Shown: positions 31,451 to 64,000, numbered from the stretch's first letter. The stretch is 64,000 nt of DNA from Pocillopora verrucosa (GCF_036669915.1 NC_089320.1:15851874-15915873), one strand, 5' to 3'. The notes: generated from the sequence alone by a model not told the origin. Made by a program: numbers and translations.

Positions 31451-31464
31451 CATTCACCACTCAC

Positions 31465-39613: not shown

Positions 39614-40220
39614 GTAAGTTTAAGTATGTTCTATGCTAATTGTGTTTATATATTTATCCCTTTCACTCCCAAGTTCTCATTAATAGTTCTCCTTACTGTC
39701 TGCCATACAAATAATGTTAGTTTGGGGAGTTTGGTAGTGGACCACATTGTGATATTTTTCCTCATTCTTATCACTTGTCTGCTTTATATTTTTTATATAT
39801 TGTAAGAGAAATTCTGTCTGGTCACTCATGGAAGTGAAATGGTTAAACAAGAGAGACCTAGTATAATTTGCACTATGAAATATATAATTTCACAAACTGT
39901 TTATTACCCACACTGTCTTTTTCTATATTATTCTGTTCACTAGTGTTTAGACGTCTGATATATTTGTCTGGACTGGATGGGTTTAGAGGCTCCATTTGGC
40001 TTTAAAACAAAGTATTCAACCATATCATTCAATAACTGCTCAATTTTGACCAGCAAATTTACATTTTTAGAAACTAGCCATGGACCTGTTGGGACAGAAG
40101 CATTTCAATATTTCAGCTTAATAATCCACCATCCACTATAATTTTTATTGTGCCAATGTTTCATGGTTCAACTGTTACATGTTATTATTATTTCTTTTTT
40201 TCACTTTTTCATCTTAATAG

Positions 40221-40762: not shown

Positions 40763-40804
40763 GTAGGTTCTGATTGTGCAACATATCTTCTAAAAGTACT
40801 GTAA

Positions 40805-41470: not shown

Positions 41471-42056
41471 ACTGTAGTTTTAACACCTTTCCACACATCA
41501 GGTGGCCCATAAGTCTTTCCCACTACACAATATAACAGGTTTGTTAAGCAGAAGGGTGCTGAGAAAAAAGATAAAAATATCTACTTGGGGATGTGTTTTG
41601 ATTTTAACTCCAAATTATCAAAAGAGAACGATACAAGAAATGCATTAAAGACAGCAAGGAAAATTAATTTTGAGAACCTGACAGGGAGAGGGTCAAGTTA
41701 CAGTACATGTACATGTAACCAAAAGAACTATGCAACTCAAAAATGTATGTATGATGTATGATGATTGTGTAGTTGGGGGTAGAGGACATGCAAGTAAATT
41801 TTGTAGAGGGGTGTCAAACCCCCCCCCCTCCCCATCCAAATTCCTGAGCATATCTATATAATCATCTATGTAATCACTTTCCACTATTGACCAGGAAGGT
41901 ACATGATTCATATAGTATAGTTAAAGTTATATCTCTCGTGCACAGTTCACAATTTCATCCCAGAAATGTCTAATGTATTGAAATGGTGCAGAGAAGACTA
42001 GAGAAGCACTGAGGTTTAACCGTATTGTACTGTTTCCTATACTTTATTTATTACAG

Positions 42057-43304
42057 GTATTTAATGGTGATATAGACCAAATTCATGCAGCCCAACTCAT
42101 ATCAACAAAGCCAGTTGCTGTGCTCTCAGGTAGGGGTGGCTGTGGTAAGACATTTGTTGTGTCAGAAATCTTGAAAAAGGTACTAGAGGAAAAAATGGAA
42201 AATTTCCACCAAGAGAACCCTGTAAATTCATTTGAAACAAATATGGACACCTCTGAAGGGCAAGATAAGCATGCAATCATTCGGGATTACCCTGATGATT
42301 ATGAAATCACTGAAACTGATCCAGGCAGTAAAGAAGATGAAACTTCATCTCATAATGTTGACAAGAAACTTAAAGAGGTAAATGAAGAAGTTTTGCTAAC
42401 TGCACCAACTGGCAAGGCTGCCTCCATCCTAGGGAAAAGAATTGGGATTCCTGCACACACACTGCACTCAGTCATCTTCACATTTCTCAACTGGAAGAAT
42501 CAGGTTGGAAATGTCAATGATTGGAAATTCAGCAAAGTTCATCTTCTAGTGTGCGATGAATGCAGTCTGGTGTCGGTGAGGGTGTTCTACAAGCTGATCA
42601 GCATTTTGCGTCAGTATGCCCATCTTAAACAAGTGATTCTCTTGGGGGATGTAAACCAACTTCCATCCATTGAGCCTGGGAATTTTCTGGGTGATATCTT
42701 CCACACATTGGAGAAAAATGGCTTCTGCATCACTCTGCAAACCAACCACCGATCAGATTCAGAGCTTATTGTTCAAAATGCTGGAAAAATATCAATGCAG
42801 CAGATGCCATTTTTTGATTCAGAAAGAGGTTTCTTCTCAGTTGAATACAATTCTAATGTCGACGGTGAGAGTATCACTGTCACTGAAATTATTAAAGACA
42901 TACTGAAAAATGAGGCAAACCCTTTTATCCTGCCCAAACCTGAAGCCTCTCAATTTGTTACATTGCGACGAAAAGACTGTGACAACATCAATGAACTATG
43001 TGCTCTCCATTACAACAAACACTGCATCAAAGACCACCGTGGGAAACTGAAATTTGAAATTGGAGACAAAGTTTGTGTAAGGCGTAACATGCTGTGTCTT
43101 GATCAGTATGAAAACGAAATTGTCAAGATTTGTAATGGAGAGATATTCTTCATTAGAGATATCATTCAGGAACAAGACGAAAGGAGCAAAAAGAAAATTT
43201 TTTACTGTCTAGACGATGGTGAAAAGATAATAAAGGTTGATTTCAAGACACTGAAATCAGCCAAACTGAGTCATGCTTGGGCAAGAACCATTCACACATT
43301 CCAG
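42057..43304 (+). CDS. HELB-like helicase exon 3: SF1 helicase core with Walker A 'AVLSGRGGCGKT', motif Ia 'LLTAPTGKAASILG', Walker B 'LLVCDECSLVS', 'LLGDVNQLPSI', motif V/VI 'AWARTIHTFQ'
   Basis: ttattacAG acceptor; CAG|GTAGGA donor; motifs characteristic of the RecD/HELB/PIF1-type SF1B family. Confidence 0.85.
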
Positions 43305-44310
43305 GTAGGAGCTCTTTCTAGCAAACTGGAAAATTAAAATCAAATAACGCAAATTTAAAGAAGTTATCTTTAAATTAGCAACCACCTAACAACAACCTGT
43401 GTTGAAGAATGGAGGAATGTAACAATAGCTGCAGTGGCACCTTTTACCCCTTCACTCTCAGTAAAGAAATGATTTATGCGCAGGTTTTTGTGGAAAACAT
43501 AGACCTCATATCTGATTCTGTTGCCAGGTTTGGTGGTACATCAACTTTCAATTTAGTTTAGAAAGTAATTCAGAATTGTTTTCATTTTGTGTTACCTTAC
43601 TCTGTGATTGGTCTGGAAGACTTTCGCCAGAATATCAACCAATCAGATGCAAAACAAACACCAATTTTAGCAACATTGCTGAGCCTCTTCTTCTGATGTT
43701 TACCTCTTTTCCAGGTGTTGACTAGGTTACTCCAGTTCTTGCATAAAACGAAATCCAACCCTTCTCTTGTGATGACCATAGGGGGAGAGTAGATTTGCTT
43801 GTTTGACATGCCCAATTAAATTCTCACATGTAAATGTAAAGGATTGAAAATTATACAGGTTTAGAGAGGTTAACCATTAACTCCCAAGATCTGATTCTTA
43901 CTGCTACACATTTCCTTGTAAATAAGTTACAAGAATTTGGTGTTAGATCAAGATAACAACTACCTGATACATTTGAGTATTCTCATTACCTGTTTACTGG
44001 ATAGTGCATGGATATTGTCAGGAGAGGTTACTTGTTAATCACCTCTGGGAGTTAAAGGGTTAAAGAGTCAATGTTTTGGGATCAATGTCGGTATCTAAGC
44101 AACTGTGTACCTACCCCTCCCCTGACTCAACAGCAGTCATCTGATAACAAGTTAGGGCAGTAGCCCTTTACAAGTAAGGGCTCCTGGCTTGGGTTTATGT
44201 TGGGTTGGGGGAGGGGTAGATGCCTGGTTGCTCTGATACTGACATTGATCCATGTTTTGTATGGATTCTGTCTTGAGACTCAGTCTAATACTGTGCCACA
44301 TTTTTCTTAG

Positions 44311-45333
44311 GGCTCAGAGTGTGACACAATTGTCTATGTGGTGGGAAATCCGTTTTACCAGAACTGGCAGCATGTGTACACGGCGATCACCCGTGGCGTG
44401 CGGCAAGTTGTATTGGTTTACAAGCACATTTCCTTGTCACGTGCCGTTACGTCACTTCCTGTACCGCGTAAGACTAAATTGAAAGAAGACATGGTGAAAG
44501 CTCTGAGAAACCAAAATCAGCTTAATAAGCTTGATGGGGTGAAGACCAACGCCCAAATTGCCCCAGATCATGGAGATGGTGTCGCGGTTTCTCTCCTGCC
44601 CTCTGATGACATGAAAGAGGCCACTGTAAGGTCAGTACTAGAGGCTCACTGCGAAGATCAACAAAGGGTATTAGGGGAATGTTCTTCAGGAACATCATCC
44701 TCCTTCAGCGCTGCAAGATGTTCAGAGGATTTTTGTATCTCAAACAAAAATCTGAATATCAAAAATCACCAGAAGGAGCAAGAAGACACGAGCTATGTCC
44801 TTGCTCCAAATAGAGATCGATCCTCTCACGAATTGGCCGAAGACTACCGTCAAGAAATGGCTGTGGTTGCTGCAGAGGCCAGAGACTCCCAACAGATCTC
44901 TGGTGGTTCCCCTCTGAAGGTAAAGTGTGGCTTGGAAGCCATTTTTGAAAGTCCGGGCGGCAAAAGGAAACATCCAGAAAACGTCAAACAGGACGGCCAG
45001 GATATCTTGGACTCAAAGATCTATCAGAGCCCGACGCAAAAAAGAAAGTACCCTGAAGGCATCACTCCTTTATCTCCTCCGCAAACGCCACCTTACCTTG
45101 GAAAATTTCCATCGTCTCTTTCATCATTTAGCCCCTTGAGCCAGACCTCAAGAGAAATAAAGCAAGCCGCTGATAAAAAGCCAGCTATCACAGGAACTAC
45201 TGCAAAATTCAACACCAAGTGCAAGGTCTGCGGAGGTCCAATTCATGCTGGCAAAGACCAAATAACTCATCTCTTCGATGGCTCCAAAAAATCTTGGATT
45301 CACGTTAGGTGTTCAACCAGTGATGCGCAGTAA
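44311..45333 (+). CDS. HELB-like helicase exon 4: motif VI 'GSECDTIVYVVG…YTAITRGVRQVVLV', S/P-rich low-complexity tail with several S/T-P sites, C-terminal zinc ribbon (CKVCGGPIHAGKDQITHLFDGSKKSWIHVRC); stop TAA at 45331-45333
   Basis: tttttcttAG acceptor in phase 0 joining TIHTFQ|GSECD; long ORF. Confidence 0.85.
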   Translation, partial: GSECDTIVYVVGNPFYQNWQHVYTAITRGVRQVVLVYKHISLSRAVTSLPVPRKTKLKEDMVKALRNQNQLNKLDGVKTNAQIAPDHGDGVAVSLLPSDDMKEATVRSVLEAHCEDQQRVLGECSSGTSSSFSAARCSEDFCISNKNLNIKNHQKEQEDTSYVLAPNRDRSSHELAEDYRQEMAVVAAEARDSQQISGGSPLKVKCGLEAIFESPGGKRKHPENVKQDGQDILDSKIYQSPTQKRKYPEGITPLSPPQTPPYLGKFPSSLSSFSPLSQTSREIKQAADKKPAITGTTAKFNTKCKVCGGPIHAGKDQITHLFDGSKKSWIHVRCSTSDAQ

Positions 45334-46231: not shown

Positions 46232-46325
46232 TTAACAACTGAGTTGAAAACGTCAATTGGCCACCGTCAAGAGTAAAAAAGCTGATGTTTCGAGCGTTTG
46301 CCCTTCGTCAGAGTGATTGGAGGAA
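46232..46325 (+). repeat. Family 1 repeat, partial copy
   Basis: CAACTGAGTTGAAAACGTCAATTGGCCACCGTCAAGAGTAAAAAAGCTGATGTTTCGAGCGTTTGCCCTTCGTCAGAG. Confidence 0.65.
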
Positions 46326-46806
46326 TTGTGGGTTGTGTGTGGGTTTATATGCAGAAAGTGGAGCTACGCTATTGGTGAGAGTGGGATTGTAATGTTTTTC
46401 TGTCGGTTAAATTATACCGCAACAGAATGTGATTCTTTTTACCGTGGAATAGCAAAATTTTTGACAGGAAAATTGTCTGAAAGAAATATCCTGATTGGTC
46501 GCCTATTAAGCGCAAATTTTACTCTTTTACTTTTCTATATGCATTTGAGTTTTAGTTGGTAAAACTTCTTACATCAGGTCATTTACCTATATTTTACAAG
46601 TAAGTCGACTTTCGTGTTTAAACATGAAGAAGACATTTCAATTCGATGTTATGGAAGATCACGCTACTTTCACGCGTTATGCGTTCCATGCTCCCATCAG
46701 AAACTGTAATTATAATTTTTAATGCAATCAAATGAAAAAGATTAAAAAGATTATGAAAAGATTCCTCCACAGGAAAGAAGAATCTTCAAAATGTGTCCCG
46801 CTCCTA

Positions 46807-46885: not shown

Positions 46886-47740
46886 GCGGGCTTCTTTACT
46901 GCATTTGCTTAACAAGCAGCTCACCTGCGCTGATAATTGCTATACTTAAAAACTGTGATGTTATTTGTTTCTGCGTTCTCCGAACGGCTAAAAACGCTTC
47001 GAAGTCTTCTAGAGAATTGTCCGTGAACGTTTACGGTCCAACCTGTATTTCCAAGAAAACTAGCTAAAACTCAAGCTGTTTTAAATAAGACGAACGTGTG
47101 TAGTTAAGGACTTCGCGATAACGGTTGTTGCCTGCGCAGATAAACGAAATTGGTACAAGATGCATTCAGTTTACTATGGCAACAAAGACGTTTGCTTTCT
47201 GGAACTGAAACAAAAATTTGCGAAATCGTCGATTCATCGGTGAAGACATTCTTGTTCTTGAGGTTGTACGAGTCAATGTCAATGTCAGCTAATCGGAATA
47301 TCACAAGATATGTGCAGAGCTGCAAAAATTGAAGTAATTTGGCGACACCTGTTTTTCGATTTACAGTCTCAAGATCGCCTTTTCGACGGGCTGTAACCGG
47401 AAAGGAAGTTAAAGGAAATCCACCCTTTTCTAGAATAAAAAGAAAACCTTACCTCTCGGCTCAGCAATTTTTTTACATCTGGCTCCACACAACAAAGTCA
47501 CTGCTCCATTTTATATAACTGCGCCTCTTTCCACTACGCATAAATATACATCCAACTTGTTCGTTCTGCGAGAAAAAGTAATGTTATATTGTGACGTCAC
47601 AATAAAGTTTACAACTGAGGTGCGCGAGATGAATGAGTTGGTCCCAGACCGCCTGCTTTTTTTACAGAGGACGAAGAAATTTGGTCTGGTCTCGAGATTT
47701 ACAAAACGCACATTATTGAGGGAACGTTTGGCGAAATACA

Positions 47741-47762
47741 TACATACATACATACATACATA
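47741..47762. repeat. (TACA)n/(TGTA)n microsatellite, probable 3' tail of the LINE
   Basis: catacatacatacatacataca. Confidence 0.7.
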
Positions 47763-47902
47763 ACTTTATTTGATAACGCAGGTTAAAATTTGCGCAACTT
47801 TACAGCTGATGTGGACCTGCCTAAACTAATTAGTCTATAATTATATAAAATACAGATATGATAAAATTTATAAGTTGAATAAATCAAGTAAACCATAAAG
47901 TT

Positions 47903-50900
47903 TTAGTAATAGTGAAAATTTGGTTTCATGTTTTGTATAACATTACCTCCCTTTTCAAAATTAATATTCATAACAGTTTGCTTGGATTGTTTTAAGTTAT
48001 ATTTAAAAATAGATAAATTTGGAGAATCTTTAACATTATCGGGAAGTGCATTCCATGCTACTGCAGATCTATGAGCAAAGGACCTACGACCCAATTCGGT
48101 TTTGGGCCTATTAAGTACAACATTCAGGGATTTCCTTAGGTTATAACTGTTAGAGTTCTTGGTCACCAAACAATTAATTTCCCGCAACCCTAAATTATAA
48201 TAAGCATTATATGTAATAGTTAAGATACGTAGCTTATAAAAATACTCTAAAGGCATCCAGCCAACCTTAGAAAGTACATCATTATCCCCAAAACTATTTG
48301 GTATCTTATGAATTAGCCTGGCAGCCCTGATGTGAATCATTTCTAGATCTTTAAGCTTGGATCCAGACCCCCAAATTGCAATTCCATATAGAACACTTGG
48401 TATAACTATCCTATAGTAAAAAGTCTCCAAGATAGATGTACATAGGAAATTTATACGTCTCAACATTTTAACTTTGGCATTAAATGCAGATCTAGCCAAT
48501 GCAACATGCTGAGACCAAGAGAGTTTATCATCAATTGTAACCCCAAGGCAATTGGTGGAGGACACATACCGAATGGTGTCCATACCCCACTTCAGCTGTT
48601 TCAAAGGACCTATGAAGGGGGTAGTACTTAAGACCATTGCCTCGGATTTACCTTCATGTAGAATCAATCTGTTACTAAGACACCAGGAATTAACCTGGTC
48701 CAAAACAGCCTGTAACCCTGTTGTTATTTCATCAACAGTATTCCCTACTACATATATTGTTGTGTCATCAGCATACATATAGACTTCTCCACTGGTAATA
48801 GATTCAGGGAGGTCATTAACATAAGATGCAAACAATCTTGGTCCTAGTAAGGATCCCTGAGGGACCCCAGCTCTAATGGGGATTCTATCAGATCTAGACC
48901 CACTTACACTAGTCCCTTGTACACGGTTGGAGAGATAGTCATTGATCCATTTCCACATATCACCTGCCAAGCCAACAGCCTTGAGTTTCTCAGTAAGAAT
49001 ACTGTGGTTGACACAATCAAAAGCTTTGCGGAAATCAATGAATAAGACTCCAACCTTATGGCCTCTATCCAGGGCACTCCCCCAGGACTCAGTGAGATGA
49101 AGGAGGAGGCTCTCCGTTGAATAGCCCCTCCTAAATCCCCATTGTCTATCTGTGAGAATGCCATTGGATAACATGTGATCATCAAGTGAGTCACACACTA
49201 CCTTCTCAAGAAGCTTTCCTGGTGTACTAAGCAAGGATATAGGTCGGTAATTGTTAGGATCCAGCCTGTTCCCTTTCTTAAAAACAGGTGTAACTAATGA
49301 CTCCTTCCATTGTTGAGGGAACTTACAACAGTCCATGCTTTTTTTGAACACCTCTAGCAGACCCTGAATAGCAGAGTCCTGTGCCAATTTAAGATCTTTA
49401 GGAAAAATATTATCAGGGCCTACTGCTTTGTTTGGATTAATAGACTTCAAAACATCTCTAACTATATCCCAATTCAAAGAAAAATTCTCTATAGTGGGGG
49501 TAATTCTATTAATATAAAAAGTAGTATCTAAATGTACTGGATCCAAGTTCTTAGTAAGATCATGTGCAATATCAATAAAATAGTTATTAATCAAATTCGC
49601 TTTCTGCCTATCATCTGAAATAATAGTGTTATTAGAATCTTGTAGGGGACCAATTTTATCACTTTTGATCTTACCAAGTATACGATTAGATATTCTCCAG
49701 AAATCTTTAGGTGAAGAAGATTCTTTAAATAGCCCAATCCAGTAAGAGGCCTCAGCTTTTCTGAGCATACTTCTAACAGCGTTTCTTTTAGCTCTATAGA
49801 TGTCCCACTGAGGATTATCATGGGGTTTACCTTGAGCAGCTTTTAAACACTTATACCTTTGATTCATAGCCTTTCTGATTTCGGTATTGATCCAGGGAAG
49901 TGACTTGTGTCTGACCTTCACATTCCTTCGTTTGATGTTGGACTCTATAATGTCTTTAAACATGGTTTCCCATAAGTAAACACTGTCCTCAACATCCTCT
50001 ACAGCAGACACAATATGCCATGGAGCTTCCTCTAAGGACCTCTGGAATTTTTCATTATCCATATCCTTATAGTTCCTTACTGTAATAAGCTTAGGCTTTG
50101 AATTACTCCTCCTTGTAGAAAAGGCAGCAAATATAAGATGATGGTCTGAAATGCCCAGGTCAATAGAACCAGCTAAGACATTTGATGCATGCAAATTAGG
50201 ACTAACAATAATGAGGTCGATAAGTGACTTAGAGTTAGCTGTGATGCGCGTTGGTGATTCAATGACGTTAACGTAACCAAAACGCCTAAGAATTCTTTTC
50301 ATTCTATTACAGTCATATGGCGCATCTTGATCTGTATCTGCCGTATTAGCTAAGAGATTACAGTTAAAATCACCTAATAATATGACATTCTTCCTCTTGA
50401 TCCATATTTTATTAAGCAGGTCATGTAAGTCATCATAAAACGTGATTGATTTAGGTGGTCGGTATAGGCAGCCAAGTAAAGTAGACTGTGATCTTATGGT
50501 AATGTTAATCCATACAGCCTCCAAGTCCTGATGAATGTCCCACTTTAGGTTTTCAGAAATGTTCAAATTATCGCGATAATATATTACCACGCCGCCACCT
50601 TTCAAGCCATTTGATCTATCTCTTCTCACCGTGTTATAACCATATATTCTTATTAATTCATTTGATAGGTCTACGGTCAGGTGGGTCTCAGTAACGCCCA
50701 GGATGTCGAATTCAACCTCTTTTAATAGGAATTGAATTTCAGACAATTTATTAGTAAGACCATTGATATTTATGTGTCCAATCTTTAAGTTCTTGTTGTT
50801 GCCCATCGTAGTCTTTAACGTAGTGAAAACATCTTCGTCAGGTTCAGACACCACGTCATCGTCAAGGTTTAAGTCAAAAGAACTGGCATCGGCAAAGGGA

Positions 50901-51448
50901 AGAGCCCTCAGTTCACAGAAAGGGCAGTTCCAGAAGAAATGATCGAGGAGTTGAAGTTTGTTGTATTCACTTGGGTTAACTCTTCCACACTTTATGTGGC
51001 ACCAACGGAGACAGATATCGCATTCTATTGCACGGTGAGTTTTGGCGACAGCTCTCTCGCAAATTGGGCACTTAGGGCTGTTAAGTGGGGGACCAGGATT
51101 AGGATTAATGTCACCACTAGTTGAGAGCCTTATCAAATTAAAGGTGCTGACTGAGTTGGGATACAGAGAAACCCGAGTTGAGAAGAACCTTCTACCGTGG
51201 GAGCGATGATACGTACCACGTGGAGGAAATGTAGCCAGAGTCGGGTAGAAAAAATCCTTTCGCCAATCCATGGCACACTCCGAAGCATCACTACGCATTC
51301 CATTGGCTTTTCCGAAGGCTTCGACATCGAAGAAGCAACAGTAAAAGCGAAACTGAACCAGAAAAGCATATAAAGTGACGGAACTCCAAGAAAAACGTCC
51401 AACCGCCATGGCTGACCACCGCTGACCATCAAATACTCCGTCATGCAC
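47903..51448 (-). mobile_element. Non-LTR (LINE) retrotransposon ORF2-like polyprotein: PHD/C4-type zinc finger, APE-type endonuclease, reverse transcriptase (FIDFRKAFD…YADDTTI), 1181 aa, intact
   Basis: Single uninterrupted 3546-nt ORF; EEP endonuclease motifs (HININGL, GVTETHL), RT motifs (FRKAFD, YADD); (TGTA)n microsatellite at the element 3' end (47741-47762). Confidence 0.9.
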
Positions 51449-51860
51449 TAAACAGCATCACTCTTATACATGAACGTGAGAGGTAAGGCCAACTCTAGTC
51501 GAGTACGCAACTTTTTAATTGTACTCAACGAATTTACGAGAATTTTTAATTTAAATAAAGTTTATGTCTGTTTTGTCACCAGTGCAGGTCGAAGTAAACA
51601 TCTGAGCCAAACCTCAGACCTCCGAATTACAGGGATCCCTTTGGAGGGTTAGGCCATTATCAGCTCGTGTGCGATAAGCGATCTCTAGAACATAATGGAG
51701 CGAACTTTATTCGTGTACATAGCTTATCTCACAAGAATTCTTCCAACACCTTTCCCCGCGCCAAATTGTTCAGAGGAGACTCTTTAAACACGAAGAAAAT
51801 ATCCACCATTGCTTGTATAAAATATTTCTGGGACACACAAAACGTGACGCCGCAACCATA

Positions 51861-54800
51861 GATTCGGAAAAGTTTGACCTCCACGGGTAAGTCTTACGAT
51901 GATTGTTTATATTTCAATGATTGACCTCTGGTTTGATAACATTTTTTATGGTTAAGCGTGGCTTAATTCTTTGAGCAAAACAGATGATAAAGCGACAAGA
52001 AAGCGCTCAATAAGCAAATCAAACAACAGTAGACCTCTTTCAAGTCCGTGGTATGGTTCATAGGGGTCTTACAAGTCTCCAACGAGAGATAACGTTTCGC
52101 CATTTGGTCTCAAGATCAGATCATATTTTTAGGCCAAAAGCCTTGTAAAGGTAATGAATTTTGCAGTGCATGGTCTATGTCTTGAGATTCTGGCATTTCT
52201 TTTTAAACTCTGATTTGAAAAAAAAAAAATGTCTCAATCAGGAGCCCTCTTGTCTCAATATGTTCTTGGTGGCAACTTGAGGTAGATATGCTACAATCTG
52301 AGAAAGATGCTCTTTTAAATTGGATCGCAAAATAAAAAGATTTTCTCTTACCAGGTTCAGGTTTAAAACACCTTAAAGGCCACTCTTAAGTGCCCCCTTC
52401 CCCCCACCCCTCAGCTGAAATTGTAGCCTCATGAGAGGACAAAAGAAAATAAATTTGAGGGACATGATTTCAAGTGACACTAAGCCCTTGAAAAATATGA
52501 AAAAGGGCATGGAAAATTAAGTGAAAATAAGTAATCATATTTTGACCTGAAGATGAAATACATACAAAGAAAAATTTGAAACAATTTCAAAATATAAAAG
52601 CCATAAATTGGAGATTCCAGGACGACGGGTAGAGTAATTGTATCCAGCTTCGAACAGCAAAACAAGCTAAACAGCTGTTGAATGTTGTTGATGTACGAAA
52701 TTAATTGATTTCGATCGAGACAAAGCGACTTTGGAGTTAAGGAGAAAAAGGCATCGGTCGGGTATCATTAAATTCGTGAAAGATTACCAAATTGGAGATT
52801 TTTTTTTACATTGCATATTACTGTTCCTTGTGTTAAGCCTTTGATTTGGAGTGAGACTGAAGATGAGCATGAAAACAAAGTAATTTGCATTTGAAAAGCA
52901 TGCGGCAAGGTTCGTATCATACCAAGGTCAACCTCAGCCTCATTCCTGTTCAAAGGCTTGGCAACCAAGCACACAACTGTAAAATAGACTATTGAACAAA
53001 GAAGACATCAGGATACGTAGATTAAAAACTGAATTCTTCCATTCTTCAATAGATGTAATCAAAACAAGATTCATCAAACTTCGAGAGACGATGCGTGAGC
53101 TAGGTCACTCATGAAACTCCAAAAGGGTAATGTTGCCCTGATGAAAAAGTTTACTCGGAAAATCAAACGCTTGTAGTACCAATTATCCTTCACTCAGGGA
53201 GCTTCAAATCTCCCGAGTCTGCAAACAGAAATGCTGTCCAATTCATCTGACGCATTAGATAGGTTGTGCTATGTTTATACTTATAGAAATGTCAGCATCT
53301 CATTTAACTATTGGGCAACTCTGACGAACAGTGTTTTTGCGTTTCTTCTCGCTCCCATGACAGCGACAGGGAATGCTTTCGTTTTGGCAGCAATTTGGAG
53401 AAACCCGGCGCTAAGGACTCCATCCCATGTGCTTCTTGCTGGATTGGCCTTCACAGATTTTTGCACAGGACTATTAAGTATGCCACTTCTAGCTGCGTAT
53501 AAGTTAGCACATTTAAGGGAAAGCAGTATGACATGCACACTTGTTCTGATTTCATTTAGTGTCAGTATGTTTTTTGCCTGCTTGACGGTCGTTGTCATAG
53601 TGATGGCTGCTGCAGAAAGATGGCTATGCATGAGCAGGAGGTATCTTCTTACAGTGCGCCGAGTTACCATTCTTTTTACCATAATGGTGTGCTTGATAAC
53701 TGCTTTTGTAACTGTCCGCGTTATCAGTTTTCGGTATCTATCGAAGGACATAGACAATTTGCTGAATGGAGGTTTTTTGACGGCAGCGGCGATTTGTATT
53801 CTGGTTATGGCAGTTTCTTATTACAAGGTGTTTGGAATAATTCGTCACCATCAAAAAGGAGTTCAAGCAAATCAAAATTCCATTAATATTGCCAAGTACA
53901 AAAAATCTATATTCACCGTTCTCTATATACTTGCACTTTTTGTGATCGGTTACATCCCCTATCTAGGTAGCGAGTTAACCTTTCACGTTTTGCAGGAATT
54001 CGGAGACATGTTCCTAACATGCTCCAATTTTACCTTGATTTTTGTTTATTTTTCCTCGCTATTAAATCCTTTGCTTTATTGCTGGAGAATTAAGGAGATA
54101 AAGATGGGTGTAAAAAATTTGGTAGAAAAATTACTTTGTAAACAAGCAGCAGAGAATGAGGAATAATGATAAAATTCGTAAATTTCCCTTGACAAGTTTT
54201 GCGTAGCAGAATAGGTGAAAGAAAACTATCAAAAACGAATACTGATGGTGTAGTTGACTTTTTAAGGACGCTTCCTAAGGAGACGGTTGTAGATTTTAGA
54301 TTATTTCGACTGCAGGATACTAAGGATACTAGCCGATTTTCTTGACTATTAACTACCCTGAAAACGTTTTTCTCCTCAGTTACAATGTTTATTCATGTTG
54401 ATTTGCCTATCTATCGTTCCTGAAAGCTGACCCTTTAGCGTCCTTTTTGCGTCCTACGCGCGCATAAAAGGCAACCTTCTCGTTCTTTCTTCTGTTGTAT
54501 TTAGTAATTCGAAGGATCCTGACCTCTGCTACATTTGTAACTTTTGAAACCTTTGGCACAAGTGGGACCGATATGAAAGTTTATTCTTTTATTTTCCTTA
54601 GGTTTAGTTTTCTTTTATTTTGATTAGATAAAGGTAGTCGAAAATCTATTGTACTGTGTACCTTTTTAATTGCTTTGGGATAAGTAGCGATAATCACGCT
54701 TAGTGTTTACTAGTAAACGCTCACCTATTAGTTTGAGAACGTTTGAGCTATTGACTGTTTGCGTGAATATATTGACGTTGTTTTTTTTTTTTGCCTTAAA

Positions 54801-57090
54801 CGTTTTCATCGCGATTTGTAATTGACCCTGTTTTTGACACACTGTTTATTAAGTAATAAAAGTTAACAAATGAGAGAGAGATAACTGTACACCGCAGATA
54901 GCATAGCTAATCTGGGTGGTGTAGAGTTTTTGTATTACACAACATAAAATAATAAATATGGGAAAACATATACATATGCATATCTGCTAGAAAATTAATA
55001 CATAAAGAGAGGACAAGATCATTACACAGAGAAGAAAGAAATTAAATAAGATCAATACTTAGAAAAGAAGGCGAATGGTTAGATCTGTTTTTTCATGCTT
55101 TTATCTTATATATGGGAAGTGTTCGCCTCGATTAATAGGAATTTGTTTTATTATTACTTCAGTTTAGGTCGTTTTTAGCCTTTTGCCTGTTTTAGCAACT
55201 TGTTCGTGTTAATATCTTGGTAGTTTTAGTATTCTGGTTTTCATCGACAACAAATCTTTGTTAACCGTCACTTTGCTTCTCGTGATTGCGACCCGAAAAA
55301 TAGTCCCAAACACCTCGGTAGCCATACGCCTAAAGCGACGCCTCGCTTGTATTTTCTTTCAGTCGTCGCAAGCGTAACACGGAAGATTACTTTAACAAAT
55401 TTTGTTGTTAATTTTCTTTGTCAACCTGTATACCTAGCACTTTCTCCGTTGTAACTCGGCGCTTGCATGTTGGCAAAAGTTGCAACATTGAAAAAAAACG
55501 GCTTCAAAGTCTGATTACTGAACCATGGAAAATTATTTCAAGGCACAAATATTTGCATAACGTTGGTATGTTTAATAATCATTTGGTAATAATCGAACTG
55601 CACTGAGATATTTCGAACCGTTTATTGTACGTTACTTTTACTTCACCATCATATTGCCATTAAATTACCAGTGAGTTAGATATCTGTTAAATGATAAAAG
55701 GAGATAAATTTATGTTTTTTAAATAGTGTTAACCCTACCACACCCTTGTGCTGACAGTGCAAGGTGCAGACAAGTCAACATTGAAACTGACTCTGTGCAT
55801 GGTATCTTCATAATGATCCTGGATGATCTCGATAATCATTATCTACGAGATGCCGTAATAATGATCTCAGGATTTTCCAGAGTAGTGCTCTGTCCACCAT
55901 TTCACACACCCTCTAGATATCAATTTAACCGGCAAAGTTTATTACTAGTCTAATGACTGTTTTCTAATTATGCGGAAGGTTGCTAACTTGACCGTGCGAG
56001 ATCTGCCTGCATCAGTCCACAACTTTCCTGGCGATCTTGTGTAAAATATTTACGGAAAACACAAAACGTGACGCCACAACCATAGATACAACCACACAAC
56101 TGAAAACACCTATTAACCAATGAGAGCGCGCGTTCTATCTGTTGAATATTTAATAAACTTTTATAAGAGGTTACATGTACGCATATTCTTCCAATTACAA
56201 AATGAAAAAAGGAGAGTATAAATGGACAGCGGTATGTTATTTTTTTCTTTATTGACGCAACTTATATCGATTTAAATCGAGACAAAGCCAGATTGGAGTT
56301 TAGGAAAAAATGCCTCGCGTGGAGTTTTTATTGTCTTGAAACTTGGCCAAATTGGAAACTTCTTGTCACTTTGTTCATGAGTGTTCTTGCATGACAGCTC
56401 TTAAAATAGCCGTGACTAAGACAGACCACGTGACCTTACCAGTTATCAAACGGGAGCGCGGGAAAAAACGATCATTGTTCATGTAAGTGTGCACTGTTTA
56501 CCCACATCATGTTACATGTAATTTAGAGATCTGATTCAAAAATTTCCTCGGTAAATTTGTAATCGTCAACATCATGGCGAGCTTTCGAGGCTACTTTTTA
56601 CCCAAAGAAAGAGACTGGAACGAGGATGAAGACGACTCTGAAGTGGAAAGTGAAAGTGACGACAAGTACTTAGAATGTAAAGACATCCTTAATACTACAA
56701 GTAGGAAATACCAGTTCTACCGCCCATCGAAGACCCCAGAAAAGCTGAAAGAACTTTATGGCCAGCTTCTGCCAAAGAGAGAAAAATTTGTGCGTGCCAG
56801 ATTTGATCGAATGTTTACGTACCCTTGATGGATGGTTGAGATGATAGTGAATAAAAGATCTAATGGGCAGCAGAGCATTCCGTCCTACAGCATTCGATCG
56901 GACGACGGGGTCGATAAACTTTGATCTCGTTGTTTCTGACGCAGGCATGCTGAATCAGTAATCAACATGCCTTTGCGATTTTGGACTTGATCGAAAAAAG
57001 AAATCTCACTGCGATGCTTGATAATCCGAGGAAAAACGTAGAGGAATTCGCGCGCAGTAGAAAAGTCAACGATGATATTGCCAACCAGAT
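51861..57090. repeat. Tandem segmental duplication unit A (~5.2 kb): GPCR + degenerate helicase-exon-1-like fragment
   Basis: Unit start motif 'gattcggaaaagtttgacctccacgggtaagtcttacgatg' recurs at 51861, 57091 and 63751; long stretches of near-identical sequence. Confidence 0.85.
53231..54166 (+). CDS. Intronless class-A (rhodopsin-like) GPCR, 311 aa, copy 1 (ERW variant of DRY at the end of TM3, NPLLY in TM7)
   Basis: Single ORF with 7 hydrophobic segments, N-glycosylation sequon NSS at the N-terminus, E-R-W after TM3, NPxxY. Confidence 0.85.
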   Translation: MLSNSSDALDRLCYVYTYRNVSISFNYWATLTNSVFAFLLAPMTATGNAFVLAAIWRNPALRTPSHVLLAGLAFTDFCTGLLSMPLLAAYKLAHLRESSMTCTLVLISFSVSMFFACLTVVVIVMAAAERWLCMSRRYLLTVRRVTILFTIMVCLITAFVTVRVISFRYLSKDIDNLLNGGFLTAAAICILVMAVSYYKVFGIIRHHQKGVQANQNSINIAKYKKSIFTVLYILALFVIGYIPYLGSELTFHVLQEFGDMFLTCSNFTLIFVYFSSLLNPLLYCWRIKEIKMGVKNLVEKLLCKQAAENEE

Positions 57091-57120
57091 TCGGAAAAGT
57101 TTGACCTCCACGGGTAAGTC
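56574..57120 (+). pseudogene. Degenerate paralogue of the helicase-gene exon 1 (MASFRGYFLPKERDWNEDEDDSEVESESDD…RARFDRMFTYP* …IPSYSIRSDDGVDKL* … QHAFAILDLIEKRNLTAMLDNPRKNVEEFARSRKVNDDIANQIRKSLTSTG|gtaagt)
   Basis: Collinear similarity to 39055-39613 (acidic DSDLESGSEDEGF ~ DDSEVESESDDKY; RGKFDERF ~ RARFDRMF; LPSYSIRTDDDVNK ~ IPSYSIRSDDGVDK; ILLEFLERKNL ~ ILDLIEKRNL) but interrupted by stops/frameshifts; GTAAGT donor conserved. Confidence 0.55.
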
Positions 57121-57810
57121 TTACGATGATTGTTGATACTTCAATGATTGACCTCTGATTGATGAAATTTTTCTATTAGTGTGGCTTAATTCTTTAAGCA
57201 AAACAGACGATAAAGCGGCAAGAAAGCGCTCAATAAGCAAATCAAACAACAATAGACCTCTTTCAAGTCCGTGGTATGGTTCATAGGGGTCTTAAAAGTC
57301 TCCAACGAGAGATAACGTTTTGCCATTTGGTCTCAAGATCAGATCATATTTTTAGGCCAAAAGCCTTGGAAAGGTAATGAAGTTTGCAGTGCATGGTCTA
57401 TGTCTTGAGGTTCTGGCATCTTTTTTTTAAACTCTGATTTGAAAAAAAATATATATGTCTCAATCAAGAGCCCTCTTGTCTCAATATGTTCTTGGTGGCA
57501 ACTTGAGGGTGATATGCTACAATCCGAAAGATGCTCTTTTAAATTGGATCGCAAAATAAAAAGATTTTCTCTTACCAGGTTCAGGTTTAAAACACCTTAA
57601 AGGCCACTCTTAAGTGCCCCCTTCTCCCCACCCCTCAGCTGAAATTGTAGCCTCATGAGAGGACAAAAGAAAATAAATTTGAGGGACATGATTTCAAGTT
57701 ACACTAGGCCTTTGAAAAATATGAAAAAGGACATGGAAAATTAAGTGAAAATAAATAATCATATTTTGACCTGAAGATGAAATACATACAAAGAAAAATT
57801 CCTTGCAGGT

Positions 57811-59280
57811 TAGCTGCAAGTTAAGAAATTTCAGAAAAGACTCTTGAAACAGTTAAGGCTTTGATGGGATTTTAACCCACGCCTCCCAGATAGTTGATGG
57901 GTGCCACTACCAACTGAGCAATAAAGCAGCCTACTTTATTTGGTTCTCTGTTCCTGTAAAGAAATCAAATCACAATAAATTAAAAAGGTAATGTATATTT
58001 AGATTTATCAGATTCTGATGAAAATTTGTCTAAATGGTAGTTACGAATTGAGTCACCAAACTTTGTGAGGTTTTGTCGTGTTTATTTTTCATGTTGTTGA
58101 AGCTGATGACTGGCATGGAAAACCTTTTAGCTATCTTCAAAATCAATTACATGTGTTGTTTTCACCCCGTCCAATTATTTCACATGTGATTATATATATG
58201 TTTCTTTCGGGTACATTAACAAGCTACTAAATCGATACACACAAACTTGTCTACCTTTTTGTCTGAAACAATTTCAAAATATGTTATTGCCGATTCTTTG
58301 TTAAAAAATAAAAATAATAAAGAATAGAACGTAAAAGAACACATTTCGCCCCTTTAAGATGATCCTGCAAAGTCATAAATTGGAGATTCCTGGACGGTGG
58401 GTAGGGTAATTGTATCCAGCTTCGAACAACAAAACAACCTACTCAGCTGTTGAATGTTTTTGATAAACGAAATTGATTGATTTCGATCGAGACAAAGCGA
58501 CTTTGGAGTTGAGGAGAAGAAGGCATCGGTCGGGCATCAGTAAAATCTTGAAAGATTGCCAAATTGGAGATTTGTTTTTACATTGCATATAACTGTTCCT
58601 TGTGTTAATTGAACGAAGAAGACATCATGATACGTAGATTAAAAACTGAATACTTCCAGTGGCTTTTTTCTCATTGGGTGTAATCGAAACAAGATTCATC
58701 AAACTGCGAGAGACGACGCGTGAGCTGGGACACTCATTAAACTCCAAAAGGGTAATGTTGCTCTAATGAAAAAGTTTACTCGGAAAACCAAACGCTTGTA
58801 TTACTAATCATCCTTCACAATTAAGAAATTTCAGGAAAGACTCTTGAAACAGTTAAGGCTTTGATGGGATTTAAACCCACGCCTCCCAGATAGTAATGGG
58901 TGCCACTACCAACTGAGCAATTAAGCAGCCTACTTTAATTGGTTCTTTGTTCCTGTAAAGAAATCAAAATCACAATAAATTAAAAAGGTAATGTCTATTT
59001 AGATTTATCAGATTTTGATGAAAATTTGTCTAAATGGTAGTTACGCATTAAGTTACCAAACTTTGTGAGGTTTTTTTTGTGAGGTGTTTATTTTTCATAT
59101 TGTTTCCAAGCTGATGACTGGCATGGAAAACCTTTTAGTTATCTTCACAATCAATTACATGTGTTGTTTCACCCCGTCCAATTATTTCACATGGATTTAT
59201 ATATATGTTTCTTTCAGGTACACTAACAAGCGACTGAATCAATACAAACGAACTTGTATACTTTTTTGACTGAAACAATT
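57811..59280. repeat. 1.0-kb internal tandem repeat (~1.5 copies) inside unit B, each copy carrying a tRNA-like (A-box/B-box) SINE-type head on the minus strand
   Basis: 'ttaagaaatttcag[g/a]aaagactcttgaaacagttaaggctttgatggg' at 57824 and 58821; 'tcaaaatcaattacatgtgttgttt' at 58136 and 59136; GCTCAGTTGGTAG and GGGTTAAAATCCC boxes. Confidence 0.7.
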
Positions 59281-59925
59281 TAAAAATATAAAAGCCATAA
59301 ATTGGAGATTCCAGGACGACGGGTAGAGTAATTGTATCCAGCTTCGAACAGCAAAACAAGCTAAACAGCTGTTGAATGTTGTTGATGTACGAAATTAATT
59401 GATTTCGATCGAGACAAAGCGACTTTGGAGTTAAGGAGAAAAAGGCATCCGTCGGGTATCATTAAATTCGTGAAAGATTACCAAATTGGAGATTTTTTTT
59501 TTACATTGCATATTACTGTTCCTTGTGTTAAGCCTTTGATTTGGAGTGAGACTGAAGGTGAGCATGAAAACAAAGTAATTTGCATTTGAAAAGCATGCGG
59601 CAAGGTTCGTATCATACCAAGGTCAACCTCAGCCTCATTCCTGTTCAAAGGCTTGGCAACCAAGCTCACAACTGTAAAATGGACTATTGAACAAAGAAGA
59701 CATCAGGATACGTAGATTAAAAACTGAATTCTTCCATTCTTCAATAGATGTAATCAAAACAAGATTCATCAAACTTCGAGAGACGATGCGTGAGCTAGGT
59801 CACTCATGAAACTCCAAAAGGGTAATGTTGCCCTGATGAAAAAGTTTACTCGGAAAACCAAACGCTTGTAGTGCCAATTATCCTTCACTCAGGGAGCTTC
59901 AAATCTCCCGAGTCTGCAAACAGAA

Positions 59926-60861
59926 ATGCTGTTCAATTCATCTGACGCATTAGATAGGTTGTGCTATGTTTATACTTATAGAAATGTCAGCATCTCATTT
60001 AACTATTGGGCAACTCTGACGAACAGTGTTTTTGCGTTTCTTCTCGCTCCCATGACAGCGACAGGGAATGCTTTCGTTTTGGCAGCAATTTGGAGAAACC
60101 CGGCGCTAAGGACTCCATCCCATGTGCTTCTTGCTGGATTGGCCTTCACAGATTTTTGCACAGGACTATTAAGTATGCCACTTCTAGCTGCGTATAAGTT
60201 AGCACATTTAAGGGAAAGCAGTATGACATGCACACTTGTTCTGATTTCATTTAGTGTCAGTATGTTTTTTGCCTGCTTGACGGTCGTTGTCATAGTGATG
60301 GCTTCTGCAGAAAGATGGCTATGCATGAGCAGGAGGTCTCTTCTTACAGTACGCCGAGTTACCATTCTTTACATCATAATGGTGTGCTTGATAACTGCCT
60401 TTGTAACTGTCCGCGTTTTCAGTTTTCGGTATCTATCGAAGGACATAGACAATTTGCTGAATGGAGGTTTTTTGACGGCAGCGGCGATTTGTATTCTGGT
60501 TATGGCAGTTTCTTATTACAAGGTGTTTGGAATAATTCGTCACCATCAAAAAGGAGTTCAAGCAAATCAAAATTCCATTAATATTGCCAAGTACAAAAAA
60601 TCTATATTCACCGTTCTCTATATACTTGCACTTTTTGTGATCGGTTACATCCCCTATCTAGGTAGCGAGTTAACCTTTCACGTTTTGCAGGAATTCGGAG
60701 ACATGTTCCTAACATGCTCCAATTTTACCTTGATTTTTGTTTATTTTTCCTCGCTATTAAATCCTTTGCTTTATTGCTGGAGAATTAAGGAGATAAAGAT
60801 GGGTGTAAAAAATTTAGTAGAAAAATTACTTTGTAAACAAGCAGCAGAGAATGAGGAATAA
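59926..60861 (+). CDS. Intronless class-A GPCR, copy 2 (tandem paralogue, ~97% aa identity to copy 1)
   Basis: Same 311-codon ORF 6695 bp downstream of copy 1; differences include L2F, A->S, Y->S, LF->YI. Confidence 0.85.
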   Translation: MLFNSSDALDRLCYVYTYRNVSISFNYWATLTNSVFAFLLAPMTATGNAFVLAAIWRNPALRTPSHVLLAGLAFTDFCTGLLSMPLLAAYKLAHLRESSMTCTLVLISFSVSMFFACLTVVVIVMASAERWLCMSRRSLLTVRRVTILYIIMVCLITAFVTVRVFSFRYLSKDIDNLLNGGFLTAAAICILVMAVSYYKVFGIIRHHQKGVQANQNSINIAKYKKSIFTVLYILALFVIGYIPYLGSELTFHVLQEFGDMFLTCSNFTLIFVYFSSLLNPLLYCWRIKEIKMGVKNLVEKLLCKQAAENEE

Positions 60862-63236
60862 TGATAAAATTCGTAAATTTCCCTTGACAAGTTTTGCGTA
60901 GCAGAATAGGTGAAAGAAAACTATCAAAAACGAATACTGATGGCGTAGTTGACTTTTTAAGGACGCTTCCTAAGGAGACGGTTGTAGATTTTAGATTATT
61001 TCGACTGCAGGATACTAAGGATACTAGCCGATTTTCTTGACTATTAACTACCCTGAAAACGTTTTTCTCCTCAGTTACAATGTTTATTCATGTTGATTTG
61101 CCTATCTATCGTTCTTGAAACCTGACCTTTTAGCGTCCTTTTTGCGTCCCACGCGCGCATAAAAGGCAACCTTATCGTCCTTTCTTCTGTTGTATTTAGT
61201 AATTCGAAGGATCCTGACCTCTGCTACATTTGTAACTTTTGAAACCTTTGGCACAAGTGGGACCGATATGAAAGTTTATTCTTTTATTTTCCTTAGGTTT
61301 AGTTTTCTTTTATTTTGATTAGATAAAGGTAGTCGAAAATCTATTGTACTGTGTACCTTTTTAATTGCTTTGTGATAAGTAGCGATAATCACGCTTAGCG
61401 TTTACTAGCAAACGCTCACCTATTAGTTTGAGAACGTTTGAGCTACTGACTGTTTGCGTGAATATATTGACGTTGTTTTTTTTTTTTGCCTTAAACGTTT
61501 TCATCGCGATTTGTAATTGACTCTGTTTTTGACTCACTGTTTATTTAGAAATGAAAGTTAACTAATGAAAGAGAGGTAACTGTACACCGAAAATAGCATA
61601 GCTAATCTAGGCGGTGTAGAGTTTTTGTATTACACAACATAAAATAATAAATATGAGAAAATATATACACATGCATATCTGCTAGAAAATTAATACATAA
61701 AGAGAGGATAAGATCATTACACAGAGAAGAAAGAAATTAAATAAGATCAATGCTTAAAAAAGAAGGCGAATGGTTAGATTTGTTTTTTCATGCTTTTATC
61801 TTATATATGGGAAGTGTTCGCCTCGATTAACAGGAATTTGTTTTATTATTAATTCAGTTTAGGTCGTTTTTAGCCTTTTGCCTGTTTTAGCAACTTGTTC
61901 GTCTTAATATCTTGGTAGTTTTAGTATTCTGGTTTTCATCGACAACAAATCTTTGTTAACCGTCACTTTGCTTCTCGTGATTGCGACCCGAAAAATAGTC
62001 CCAAACACTTCGGTAGCCATACGCCTAAAGCGACGCCTCGCTTGAATTTTCTTTCAGTCGTCGCAAGCGTAACACGGAAGTTTACTTAAACAAATTTTGT
62101 TGTTAATTTTCTTTGTCAACCTGTATACCTAGCACTTTCTCCGTTGTAACTCGGCGCTTGCATGTTGGCAAAAGTTGCAACATTGAAAAAAACGGCTTCA
62201 AAGTCTGATTACTGAACCATGGAAAAATTATTTCAAGCAACAAATATTTGCATAATGTTGGTATGTTTAATAATCATTTGATAATAATCGAACTGCACTG
62301 AGATATTTCGAACCGTTTATTGTACGTTACTTTTACTTCACCATCATATTGCCATTAAATTACCAGTGAGTTAGACATCTGTTAAATGATAAAAGGAGAT
62401 AAATTTATGTTTTTTAAATAGTGTTAACCCTACCACACCCTTGTGCTGACAGTGCAAGGTGCAGACAAGTCAACATTGAAACTGACTCTGTGCATGGTAT
62501 CTTCATAATGACCCTGGATGATCTCGATAATCATTATCTACGAGATGCCGTAATAATGATCTCACACACCCTCTAGATATCAATTTAACCGGCAAAGTTT
62601 ATTACTAGTCTAATGACTGTTTTCTAATTATGCGGAAGGTTGCTAACTTGACCGTGCGAGATCTGCCTGCATCAGTCCACAAATTTCCTGGCGATCTTCT
62701 GTAAAATATTTACGGAAAACACAAAACGTGACGCCACAACCATAGATACAACCACACAACTGAAAACACCTATCAACCAGTGAGAGCGCGCGTTCTATCT
62801 GTTGAATATTTAATAAACTTTTATAAGAGGTTACATGTACGCATACTCTTCCAATTACAAAAAGAAAAAAGGAGAGTATAAATGGACAGCGGTATGTTAT
62901 TTTTTTCTTTATTGACGCAACTTATATCGATTTAAATCGAGACAAAGCCAGATTGGAGTTTAGGAAAAAATGCCTCGCGTGGAGTTTTTATTGTCTTGAA
63001 ACTTGGCCAAATTGGAAACTTCTTGTCACTTTGTTCATGAGTGTTCTTGCATGACAGCTCTTAAAATAGCCGTGACTAAGACAGACCACGTGACCTTACC
63101 AGTTATCAAACGGGAGCGCGGGAAAAAACGATCATTGTTCATGTAAGTGTGCACTGTTTACCCAAATCATGTTACATGTAATTTAGAGATCTGATTCAAA
63201 AATTTCCTCGGTAAATTTGTAATCGTCAACATCATG

Positions 63237-63790
63237 GCGAGCTTTCGAGGCTACTTTTTACCCAAAGAAAGAGACTGGAACGAGGATGAAGACGACTCTG
63301 AAGTGGAAAGTGAAAGTGACGACAAATACTTAGAATGTAAAGACATCCTTAATACTACAAGTAGGTAATACCAGCTCTACCGCCCGTCGAAGACCCTAGA
63401 AAAGCTGAAAGAACTGTATGGCCAGCTTCTGCCAAAGAGAGAAAAATTTGGGCGTGTCAGATTTGATCGAATGTTTACTTACCCTTGATGGATGGTTGAG
63501 ATGATAGTGAATAAAAGATCTAATGGGCAGCAGAGCATTCCGTCCTACAGCATTCGATCTGACGACGGGGTCGATAAACTTTGATCTCGTTGTTTCTGAC
63601 GCAGGCATGCTGAATCAGTAATCAACATGCCTTTGCGATTTTGGACTTGATCGAAAACAGAAATCTCACTGCGATGCTCAATAATCCGAAGAAAAACGTA
63701 GAGGAATTCGCGCGCAGCAGTAAAGTCAACGATGATATTGCAAACCAGATTCGGAAAAGTTTGACCTCCACGGGTAAGTCTTACGATGAT
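63237..63790 (+). pseudogene. Second degenerate helicase-exon-1-like copy (in tandem unit B)
   Basis: Near-identical to 56574-57120. Confidence 0.5.
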
Positions 63791-64000
63791 TGTCTATATT
63801 TCAATGATTGACCTCTGATTGATGAAGTTTTTTTATTAGCGTGGCTTAATTCTTAAAGCAAAAAAAATGATAAAGCGACAATAAAGCGCTCAATAAGCAA
63901 ATCAAACAACAATAGACCTCTTTCAAGTCCGTGGTATGGTTTTTAGGGGTCTCAAAAGTCTCCAACGAGAAATAACGTTTTGCCATTTGGTCTCAAGATC

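Follow-up and report, generated by a model that had tools for sequence, protein, structure and literature searches.

How does a piece of a helicase gene come to be repeated together with a cluster of receptor genes? The question is raised by the right part of a 64,000-nucleotide stretch of Pocillopora verrucosa DNA (GCF_036669915.1 NC_089320.1:15851874-15915873; the whole stretch is referred to here as the window, and positions are counted from its first letter). In this part genes for a G protein-coupled receptor (GPCR) are repeated along with a degenerate exon, hereafter the pseudo-exon, which resembles the first exon of a HELB-1-like helicase gene located upstream. A preliminary description of the sequence proposed that an ancestral unit had captured this exon from the adjacent gene before a young array was amplified. 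According to the present analysis the locus is quite probably a lineage-specific GPCR array with birth-and-death evolution, where the pseudo-exon is the multiplied in-place relic of a second helicase paralogue (HELB-2) and where the duplication that gave receptor copies A and B came late.

The repeats of 51.8-64 kb were recovered by blastn self-comparison of 50-64 kb, a check akin to the dot-plot that had been suggested for this region. Three matches outline them: 52577-57340 against 59271-64000 (97.1% over 4766 nt), 51853-52576 against 57082-57800 (94%), and 63747-64000 against 51860-52117 (91%); the window contains 0 Ns. The tandem segmental array of the preliminary description is thereby confirmed, with units A and B and the start of unit C, and it is composed of the following features:

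51853-57081, + strand: repeat unit A, 5.2 kb, without segment x (blastn and alignment)
57082-63746, + strand: repeat unit B, 6.7 kb, holding the duplication junction
57082-57800, + strand: segment a of unit B
57821-58282, + strand: segment x of unit B
58369-58818, + strand: segment b2' of unit B, equal to the region upstream of the older receptor gene G2 and stopping 38 bp short of the G2 ATG
58819-58820: junction in unit B
58821-59289, + strand: segment x' of unit B, followed by segment b, GPCR B, segment c and pseudo-exon B
63747-64000, + strand: segment a, start of the next unit (C), which continues past the window end
53231-54166, + strand: GPCR copy A (G1 type), intact single-exon open reading frame (ORF) of 311 amino acids
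59926-60861, + strand: GPCR copy B, intact ORF of 311 amino acids, bearing a gene-conversion tract
56574-57113, + strand: pseudo-exon A, most likely a relic of HELB-2 exon 1, with GTAAGT donor at 57114-57119
63234-63773, + strand: pseudo-exon B, with the lesions of A plus a TAA in 'SR*YQ' and GTAAGT donor at 63774-63779
51812-51892, + strand: 'unit 0' remnant at the left edge of the array (alignment, blastn)

In unit A about 434 bp of segment x, as present in the Tara scaffolds compared below, are replaced by 13 bp at 52563-52575. The expectation that the array runs on past the window agrees with the same scaffolds, which cover the same locus and hold the further units G2 and G3.

The two intact 311-amino-acid receptor genes reported earlier are found as ORFs and match the Pfam family 7tm_1 with 62.6 and 64.1 bits (cut-off 30.5), copy B spanning profile positions 1-260 of 260. 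Seven hydrophobic segments are visible in the Kyte-Doolittle profile (34-56, 67-85, 98-135, 138-171, 174-205, 224-251 and 260-278), an ERW motif stands at 129 after transmembrane segment 3 (TM3), and NPLLY stands at 279 in TM7. ERW is a variant of the DRY motif. The products combine the 7tm_1 match, the seven segments and the E/DRY-type and NPxxY-type motifs, which are the sequence characters of class A (rhodopsin-like) GPCRs. Copies A and B differ by 10 nucleotides and 6 amino acids (98.9% nucleotide and 98.1% amino-acid identity); their near-identity was correctly recognized, at a value slightly higher than the approximately 97% first given.

The nearest database matches of the receptors, with 99-78% identity, are ENA contigs assembled from coral metagenomes of Tara Pacific. 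When clustered at 90% identity, the second-nearest match falls together with the Pocillopora damicornis protein XP_027051548.1, 'adenosine receptor A3-like', which is 3 amino acids away from copy A, and the window is accordingly Pocillopora DNA by sequence as well. RefSeq names of this kind are automatic labels. Between GPCR paralogues the ratio of nonsynonymous to synonymous divergence (dN/dS) is 0.5-0.9, and every ORF in the comparison is open, as would suit functional receptors that evolve under relaxed constraint or diversify. The products may be functional chemosensory or immune-type receptors.

The other component of each full unit is the pseudo-exon. With helicase exon 1 (39055-39636) as a tblastn query, matches were obtained at 56589-57103 and 63249-63763 with E ~1e-17 and 27-40% amino-acid identity (36% over 167 aligned columns), interrupted by in-frame stops and a frameshift. 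No nucleotide-level match between the pseudo-exon and the adjacent exon 1 was found by blastn. Although this homology is weak, a degenerate homologue of helicase exon 1 with stops and a GTAAGT donor does stand in each full unit as described, and the lack of significant similarity to 39055-39613, named beforehand as the observation that would speak against such a copy, was looked for by tblastn and not encountered, the similarity being present at E ~1e-17. When the 1-bp deletion is restored, the intron phase of the pseudo-exon is 1, as in helicase exon 1, and a third GTAAGT donor is located at 51887-51892 behind a deletion of about 1 kb. Counterparts of the other helicase exons are missing from the array in tblastn and tblastx comparison, and traces of later HELB-2 exons were likewise not found. 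A processed (retro-)pseudogene was excluded as an explanation, since exon 1 alone is present, its end is the exon-intron boundary, and the donor and downstream sequence are kept.

The disabling mutations of pseudo-exon A are a TGA at 56826-56828 (P*W), a 1-bp deletion near 56918 and a TGA in 'QAC*IS'. All three are common to both copies of the window and to the two copies (psi1 and psi2) on Tara scaffold L009, and the copy on L006, which is 5'-truncated to its 3' half, also has the second TGA. The lesions being common to all copies, pseudogenisation predates even the older duplications. The TAA of pseudo-exon B in 'SR*YQ' is also present in both L009 copies; at this site pseudo-exon A reads AGG AAA TAC at 56706, and position 63366 of copy B and both L009 copies read AGG TAA TAC. 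Copy A may have lost the TAA by back-mutation or conversion, or may have kept an ancestral state without it, and this is without functional consequence because the other lesions persist.

Between units A and B the identity is 96.85% for the pseudo-exon, 97.9% for the non-coding spacer and 98.9% for the GPCR coding sequence (CDS) with its upstream region. Since the pseudo-exon drifts at or above the flanking rate, no constraint is evident, and it would be a neutral passenger of the array. It is wholly missing from both units of L005, the GPCRs of which are frameshifted, and from the first unit of L004/L006, the GPCR of which is intact, and another L004/L006 unit has only the 3' half left.

From which gene was this exon derived? 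A database search with the repaired translation of the pseudo-exon gave an intact 219-amino-acid protein, P0121, which is 54% identical over the full length, while P0121 and the real exon 1 of the window share 42% identity only. By profile search 47 exon-1 homologues were collected, and a neighbour-joining tree of 45 sequences separated two deep exon-1 clades, a split recovered in 500/500 bootstraps. Clade 1 includes the real exon 1 of the window together with P0141 (90-97%), P0148 (73%) and P0147 (64%). The pseudo-exon groups with clade 2, being 46-56% identical to every member, 32-43% identical to clade 1 and 36% identical to its own neighbour, and in none of the 500 bootstraps does it pair with the adjacent exon as sister. 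Its lesions are few (2-3 stops and one 1-bp deletion), so that most of the divergence must have arisen while the source was a separate functional gene. Placement in clade 2 together with these few lesions points to the paralogue HELB-2, and not the extant neighbour, as the source; the proposed copying from the neighbouring helicase is not upheld. Most likely the source gene is a now-lost paralogue once seated at this very position.

An arrangement of this kind is found in a more distant coral, on the 302.7-kb contig L001 (ENA ERZ25067556 ctg24667). Its HELB-1 gene is collinear with the helicase of the window, and the first exons of the two genes (P0147 on the contig) share 64% identity. At 2.98 kb past the HELB-1 end begins an intact exon 1, P0121, of a second HELB-like gene, HELB-2, where the order is P0121, WHD_HELB exon, gypsy-type insertion and AAA_19/AAA_30 exon, and at least 5 homologues of the receptors lie another 20-40 kb or so along the contig, with up to 60% identity to the GPCRs of the window. 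Thus an intact orthologue in syntenic position is present on L001, with HELB-1, HELB-2 and a GPCR cluster, in addition to the disabling mutations common to psiA and psiB of the window and psi1 and psi2 of L009. The insertion (L001 16382-19321) is a gypsy-type retrotransposon with long terminal repeats (RVT_1, RNase H and integrase) in the HELB-2 intron between the WHD and AAA exons; HELB-2 of L001 was called intact from sequence appearance, with this element in one intron.

The left edge of the array preserves a probable trace of the lost gene. In the unit 0 remnant, positions 51812-51863 match 56036-56087, a stretch that precedes the pseudo-exon by about 500 nt, and what comes next after 51863 is the final ~30 nt of the pseudo-exon with its GTAAGT donor. 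The gap is a deletion of about 1 kb at the microhomology AACCA(T)AGAT, which would have removed the original HELB-2 exon 1. The same arrangement is common to the Tara scaffolds (L009 7800-8932 corresponds to 51431-52576), where the remnant lies about 2.8 kb past the last HELB-1 exon, against 2.98 kb for HELB-2 exon 1 of L001. Unit 0 would therefore mark the original site of HELB-2 exon 1, and the pseudo-exon is most likely an in-place relic of lost HELB-2. In a database of 5.8 billion proteins the identity to the pseudo-exon never exceeded 56%. The coverage of Pocillopora there is good, HELB-1 exon 1 being found at 90-97%, and the lack of a closer protein speaks against an intact HELB-2 elsewhere, although without proof.

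An older state of the array is seen on five Tara scaffolds (L007-L011) among the matches listed; more than 20 further similar places exist. L009 and L011, with 97-98% identity to the window, align as HELB-1, unique flank, a-x-b-G1-c-psi, a-x-b2-G2-c-psi and a-x-b-G3; L010 has the same gene table, and L007 and L008 reach from the left part to G1. The A/B duplication was found in none of the five. Further units, frameshifted GPCRs included, are contained in L004, L005 and L006, and in L005 the GPCR ORFs at 317-1338 and 8640-9557 are frameshifted, so that pseudogenised and intact receptors are mixed in the array. G2 and G3 have about 80% amino-acid identity to G1, with a synonymous divergence (dS) of ~0.18. 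The label 'young' of the preliminary description can therefore be kept for the A/B duplication only, since the unit of GPCR plus pseudo-exon is older (G1-G2 dS ~0.18).

The duplication junction was mapped to the base pair. Window 58720-58818 equals L009 15462-15560 at 100%, just upstream of G2, and at 58821 the sequence restarts with segment x: window 58821-58920 is 97% identical to L009 14559-14659 and 94% identical to L009 8953-9053. The sequences joined at 58818|58821 are without evident homology. The segment from x to b2' appears, on these alignments, to be tandemly duplicated in the lineage of the window. Simple unequal crossing-over between x segments was rejected, since b2' between x and x' needs a novel junction. 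The duplicated segment is about 6.6 kb long on L009 and the copies in the window start about 6.3 kb apart, a difference due to the loss of x from copy 1. Over 4685 aligned columns A and B are 97.9% identical, both show 97.0% identity to Tara unit 1, and private changes number 42 and 37; according to these values the duplication took place after the lineage of the window split from the Tara lineage.

Differences between the copies are unevenly distributed. Six of the 10 CDS differences between GPCR A and B fall within nt 426-493 (window 60351-60418), and at all six clustered sites copy B agrees with the older paralogues, which indicates a short ectopic gene-conversion tract at CDS nt 426-493. 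Positive selection for the clustered amino-acid differences between A and B was rejected as a cause, the six clustered copy-B states being those of older paralogues. At 57019-57195 similar clustering is present, with one copy showing older-unit nucleotide states, and it too looks like the result of short ectopic conversion. In unit A, 54827-54917 contains twelve private substitutions in 90 nt against a background of ~2%; it may be another conversion tract from an unsampled unit, Tara unit 2 being deleted here.

Taken together, these observations suggest the following history. The ancestor would have had HELB-1 and HELB-2 in tandem followed by a GPCR cluster, as in L001. In the Pocillopora lineage HELB-2 would then have been lost, its first exon excepted, and the surviving exon would have been disabled by two stops and a 1-bp frameshift. 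Together with its intron stub it presumably came to adjoin a GPCR, and the unit pseudo-exon-a-x-b-GPCR-c was probably amplified to at least three units (G1, G2 and G3), with the GPCRs as selected cargo and the pseudo-exon as a neutral rider. In the lineage of the window the segment that starts at x1 and stops shortly before the G2 ATG would have been duplicated again, giving GPCR A and GPCR B, after which unit A would have lost ~430 bp and short tracts would have undergone ectopic gene conversion. The order of these events, the loss of HELB-2 in place, the carriage of its exon by repeated tandem duplication and birth-and-death evolution are what we infer, whereas the tandem units, the descent of the pseudo-exon from a paralogue, its common lesions, the junctions, the conversion tract and the difference in copy number between lineages were seen directly in the comparisons.

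The neighbourhood of the array is composed of the helicase gene and a long interspersed nuclear element (LINE):

39055-45333, + strand: HELB-1-like superfamily 1 (SF1) helicase gene (Pfam, PDB matches, collinearity with L001 HELB-1)
39055-39613, + strand: helicase exon 1, falling in clade 1
~40220-40765, + strand: helicase WHD-like exon
~42022-43320, + strand: helicase AAA_30/AAA_19 exon
~44304-45333, + strand: helicase C-terminal exon
47740-51430, - strand: LINE with PHD finger, endonuclease and reverse transcriptase, 1181-amino-acid ORF, not a member of the array

Pfam search of 42120-43337 gave AAA_30 (3e-19) and AAA_19 (1.5e-18), and the gene thus has the RecD-like AAA_30/AAA_19 ATPase core; PDB sequence search gave weak matches to Dda, RecD2 and RecD. 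Precomputed hits to PF25894 (WHD_HELB) are attached to the L009/L010 products that match the WHD-like exon of the window and to HELB-2 of L001. In exon 1 and in P0121 no Pfam domain was found by local scan. Short translated similarities of 50-83% amino-acid identity connect 43516-43722 with 22420-22581 (minus strand) and 46243-46389 with 9979-10047, where the first member of each pair lies in a helicase intron or downstream of the gene; the similarities probably reflect pieces of dispersed repeats.

The LINE is 3.69 kb long, lies between the helicase gene and the array, matches RVT_1, Exo_endo_phos and PHD in Pfam, carries an (ATAC)n 3' tail and is flanked by a 6-bp target-site duplication (AAATAC), read directly from the sequence. 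Its empty site is intact in L007, L009 and L011, and the gene table of L010 shows an equally short helicase-GPCR spacing; the intact empty site makes the insertion recent, and either polymorphic or limited to one lineage, and activity of the element may persist. The ORF start as listed (51448) is beyond the element, so that the copy is either 5'-truncated or has an internal Met start. By blastn no array homology was found beyond the far side of the LINE, and according to the Tara scaffolds the element merely interrupts unique flanking DNA. Further upstream and unrelated to the array are an exon for a TIAM-type CC-Ex domain (1984-2385, + strand, Pfam 4.6e-31) and cadherin-domain exons of one gene (29223-33558, minus strand).

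Several other explanations of the repeated exon were weighed against the in-place relic. That an ancestral unit captured exon 1 of the extant helicase (39055-39613) and amplified it, the copy then degenerating, agrees with the significant homology, the same intron phase, the GTAAGT donor and the distance of only ~12 kb to the gene. Despite these points the idea is barely credible: at 36% amino-acid identity and with no nucleotide match the exon is farther from this gene than from clade 2 (46-56%), the tree splits the clades in 500/500 bootstraps with 0/500 for a sister relationship, 2-3 stops and one frameshift are far too few for neutral drift to 36%, and a candidate intact orthologue occupies the syntenic position in another coral. 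Alternatively, the pseudo-exon could be a partial duplicate of an intact HELB-2 still present elsewhere in the Pocillopora genome, since clade 2 holds many unnamed coral sequences and the search covered proteins and not the whole genome. This is unlikely, given that no database protein exceeds 56% despite the strong representation of Tara Pocillopora metagenomes in that database, and that the left-edge remnant lies 2.8 kb behind HELB-1, close to the 2.98 kb of the relative. The A/B duplication might also be an assembly artefact, with haplotypes or collapsed reads placed in tandem and one true G1 unit; a single G1 unit is seen in 5/5 Tara scaffolds examined among the matches listed, and the 2.1% divergence of A and B is in the range of deep allelic divergence. 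Such an artefact is very unlikely in view of the lack of Ns, a junction between b2' and x without evident homology, which is unlike an overlap-based misjoin, and about 40 private changes in each of A and B together with an indel and separate conversion tracts; moreover, the Tara scaffolds are 2-3% off the window throughout and do not have the LINE, and hence belong to another lineage, so that they do not speak against the duplication.

The pseudo-exon might, finally, be retained as a promoter with a non-coding 5' leader exon, transcripts starting from the old HELB-2 promoter and the GTAAGT being spliced to an acceptor before the next GPCR. Each pseudo-exon is indeed followed at 1.3-2.8 kb by a GPCR in the same orientation, the donor is intact in all copies, and between the window and L004/L006 its 3' half with the ~330 nt behind it is the best conserved part (94-95% against 87-91%). 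If this were true, each amplification would copy a helicase-type promoter module together with the receptor, and chimeric pseudo-exon-GPCR transcripts would exist. It is nevertheless highly improbable, as the A-B divergence of the pseudo-exon (3.15%) is greater than that of the flanking non-coding sequence (2.1%), GPCR A and Tara G1 follow the unit 0 remnant in which the exon body and ~480 nt upstream are deleted, an intact GPCR stands in a unit without pseudo-exon (the first L004/L006 unit), and the conservation of the donor is explained by the recency of the copies. Against the preferred history of an in-place HELB-2 relic multiplied in a GPCR array the following points have to be counted: the WHD_HELB hit was not reproduced by local Pfam scan of those sequences, and the 'HELB' label rests on precomputed annotations together with the AAA_30/AAA_19 domains; the absence of HELB-2 rests on the protein-database search and not on a whole Pocillopora assembly; the dN/dS of 0.5-0.9 is compatible both with relaxed constraint and with diversifying selection; and how many copies the source individual carries, like the functional state of its GPCRs, is a prediction from the sequence.

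Tandem arrays of this type are documented in corals. In the study of Noel et al. 2023 (Genome Biol 24:123, PMC10236652) tandem duplicates accounted for 32.6% of P. cf. effusa genes and originated from multiple events of different ages, and the rhodopsin-like GPCR was the commonest domain among coral-amplified families. Under the settings of that study (E <= 1e-20, at least 80% of the shorter protein, one contig and no more than 10 genes apart) GPCR A and B form a tandem cluster, with 98% identity over 311/311 amino acids, a distance of 6.7 kb and 0 intervening genes. The locus resembles those clusters in the genus Pocillopora, the gene class, the single exon, the head-to-tail order on one strand a few kb apart, the mixed age of the duplications and the genus-specific expansion. 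There is no difference in kind; what the locus adds is detail, namely a passenger in the form of a dead exon, a junction that could be mapped, a tract of gene conversion and a copy number that differs between lineages.

Vertebrate olfactory-receptor clusters represent another chemoreceptor system with birth-and-death and concerted evolution of arrays. The coral locus is similar to them in its intronless class A ORFs in tandem, its mix of intact and frameshifted genes (L005), its dN/dS of 0.5-0.9 and its short gene-conversion tracts between paralogues, while the coral GPCRs are without orthology to the vertebrate olfactory receptors. With a unitary pseudogene the pseudo-exon shares the common lesions, the intact syntenic counterpart, the kept donor and intron stub and the neutral evolution, and it differs in being a relic that is now multi-copy, multiplied by hitch-hiking in the tandem amplification of its neighbour. 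To the HELB / RecD-like SF1 helicases it is linked through the AAA_30/AAA_19 parent family, the matches to RecD2, RecD and Dda and the precomputed WHD_HELB hits; unlike these helicases, the array keeps the N-terminal exon only, with no Pfam domain, and no helicase function is possible.

In summary, the locus is an instance of the documented tandem amplification of coral GPCR genes, and the multi-copy relic is a small and unsurprising addition to it, leaving the current understanding of coral genomes unchanged. Its value is that of a worked example, at base-pair resolution, of the growth of a coral GPCR array rather than of a discovery, and the steps that can be seen include duplication through a junction without evident homology, deletion at microhomology, ectopic conversion and a change of copy number between close lineages. 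For annotation, the repeated helicase-like ORF fragments of this region merit masking as pseudogene pieces, as protein-to-genome alignment could chain unmasked fragments into chimeric gene models. Also, the locus records the probable loss, in the lineage of Pocillopora, of one member of an ancient pair of HELB-like paralogues, and it illustrates that a gene relic can multiply by hitch-hiking.

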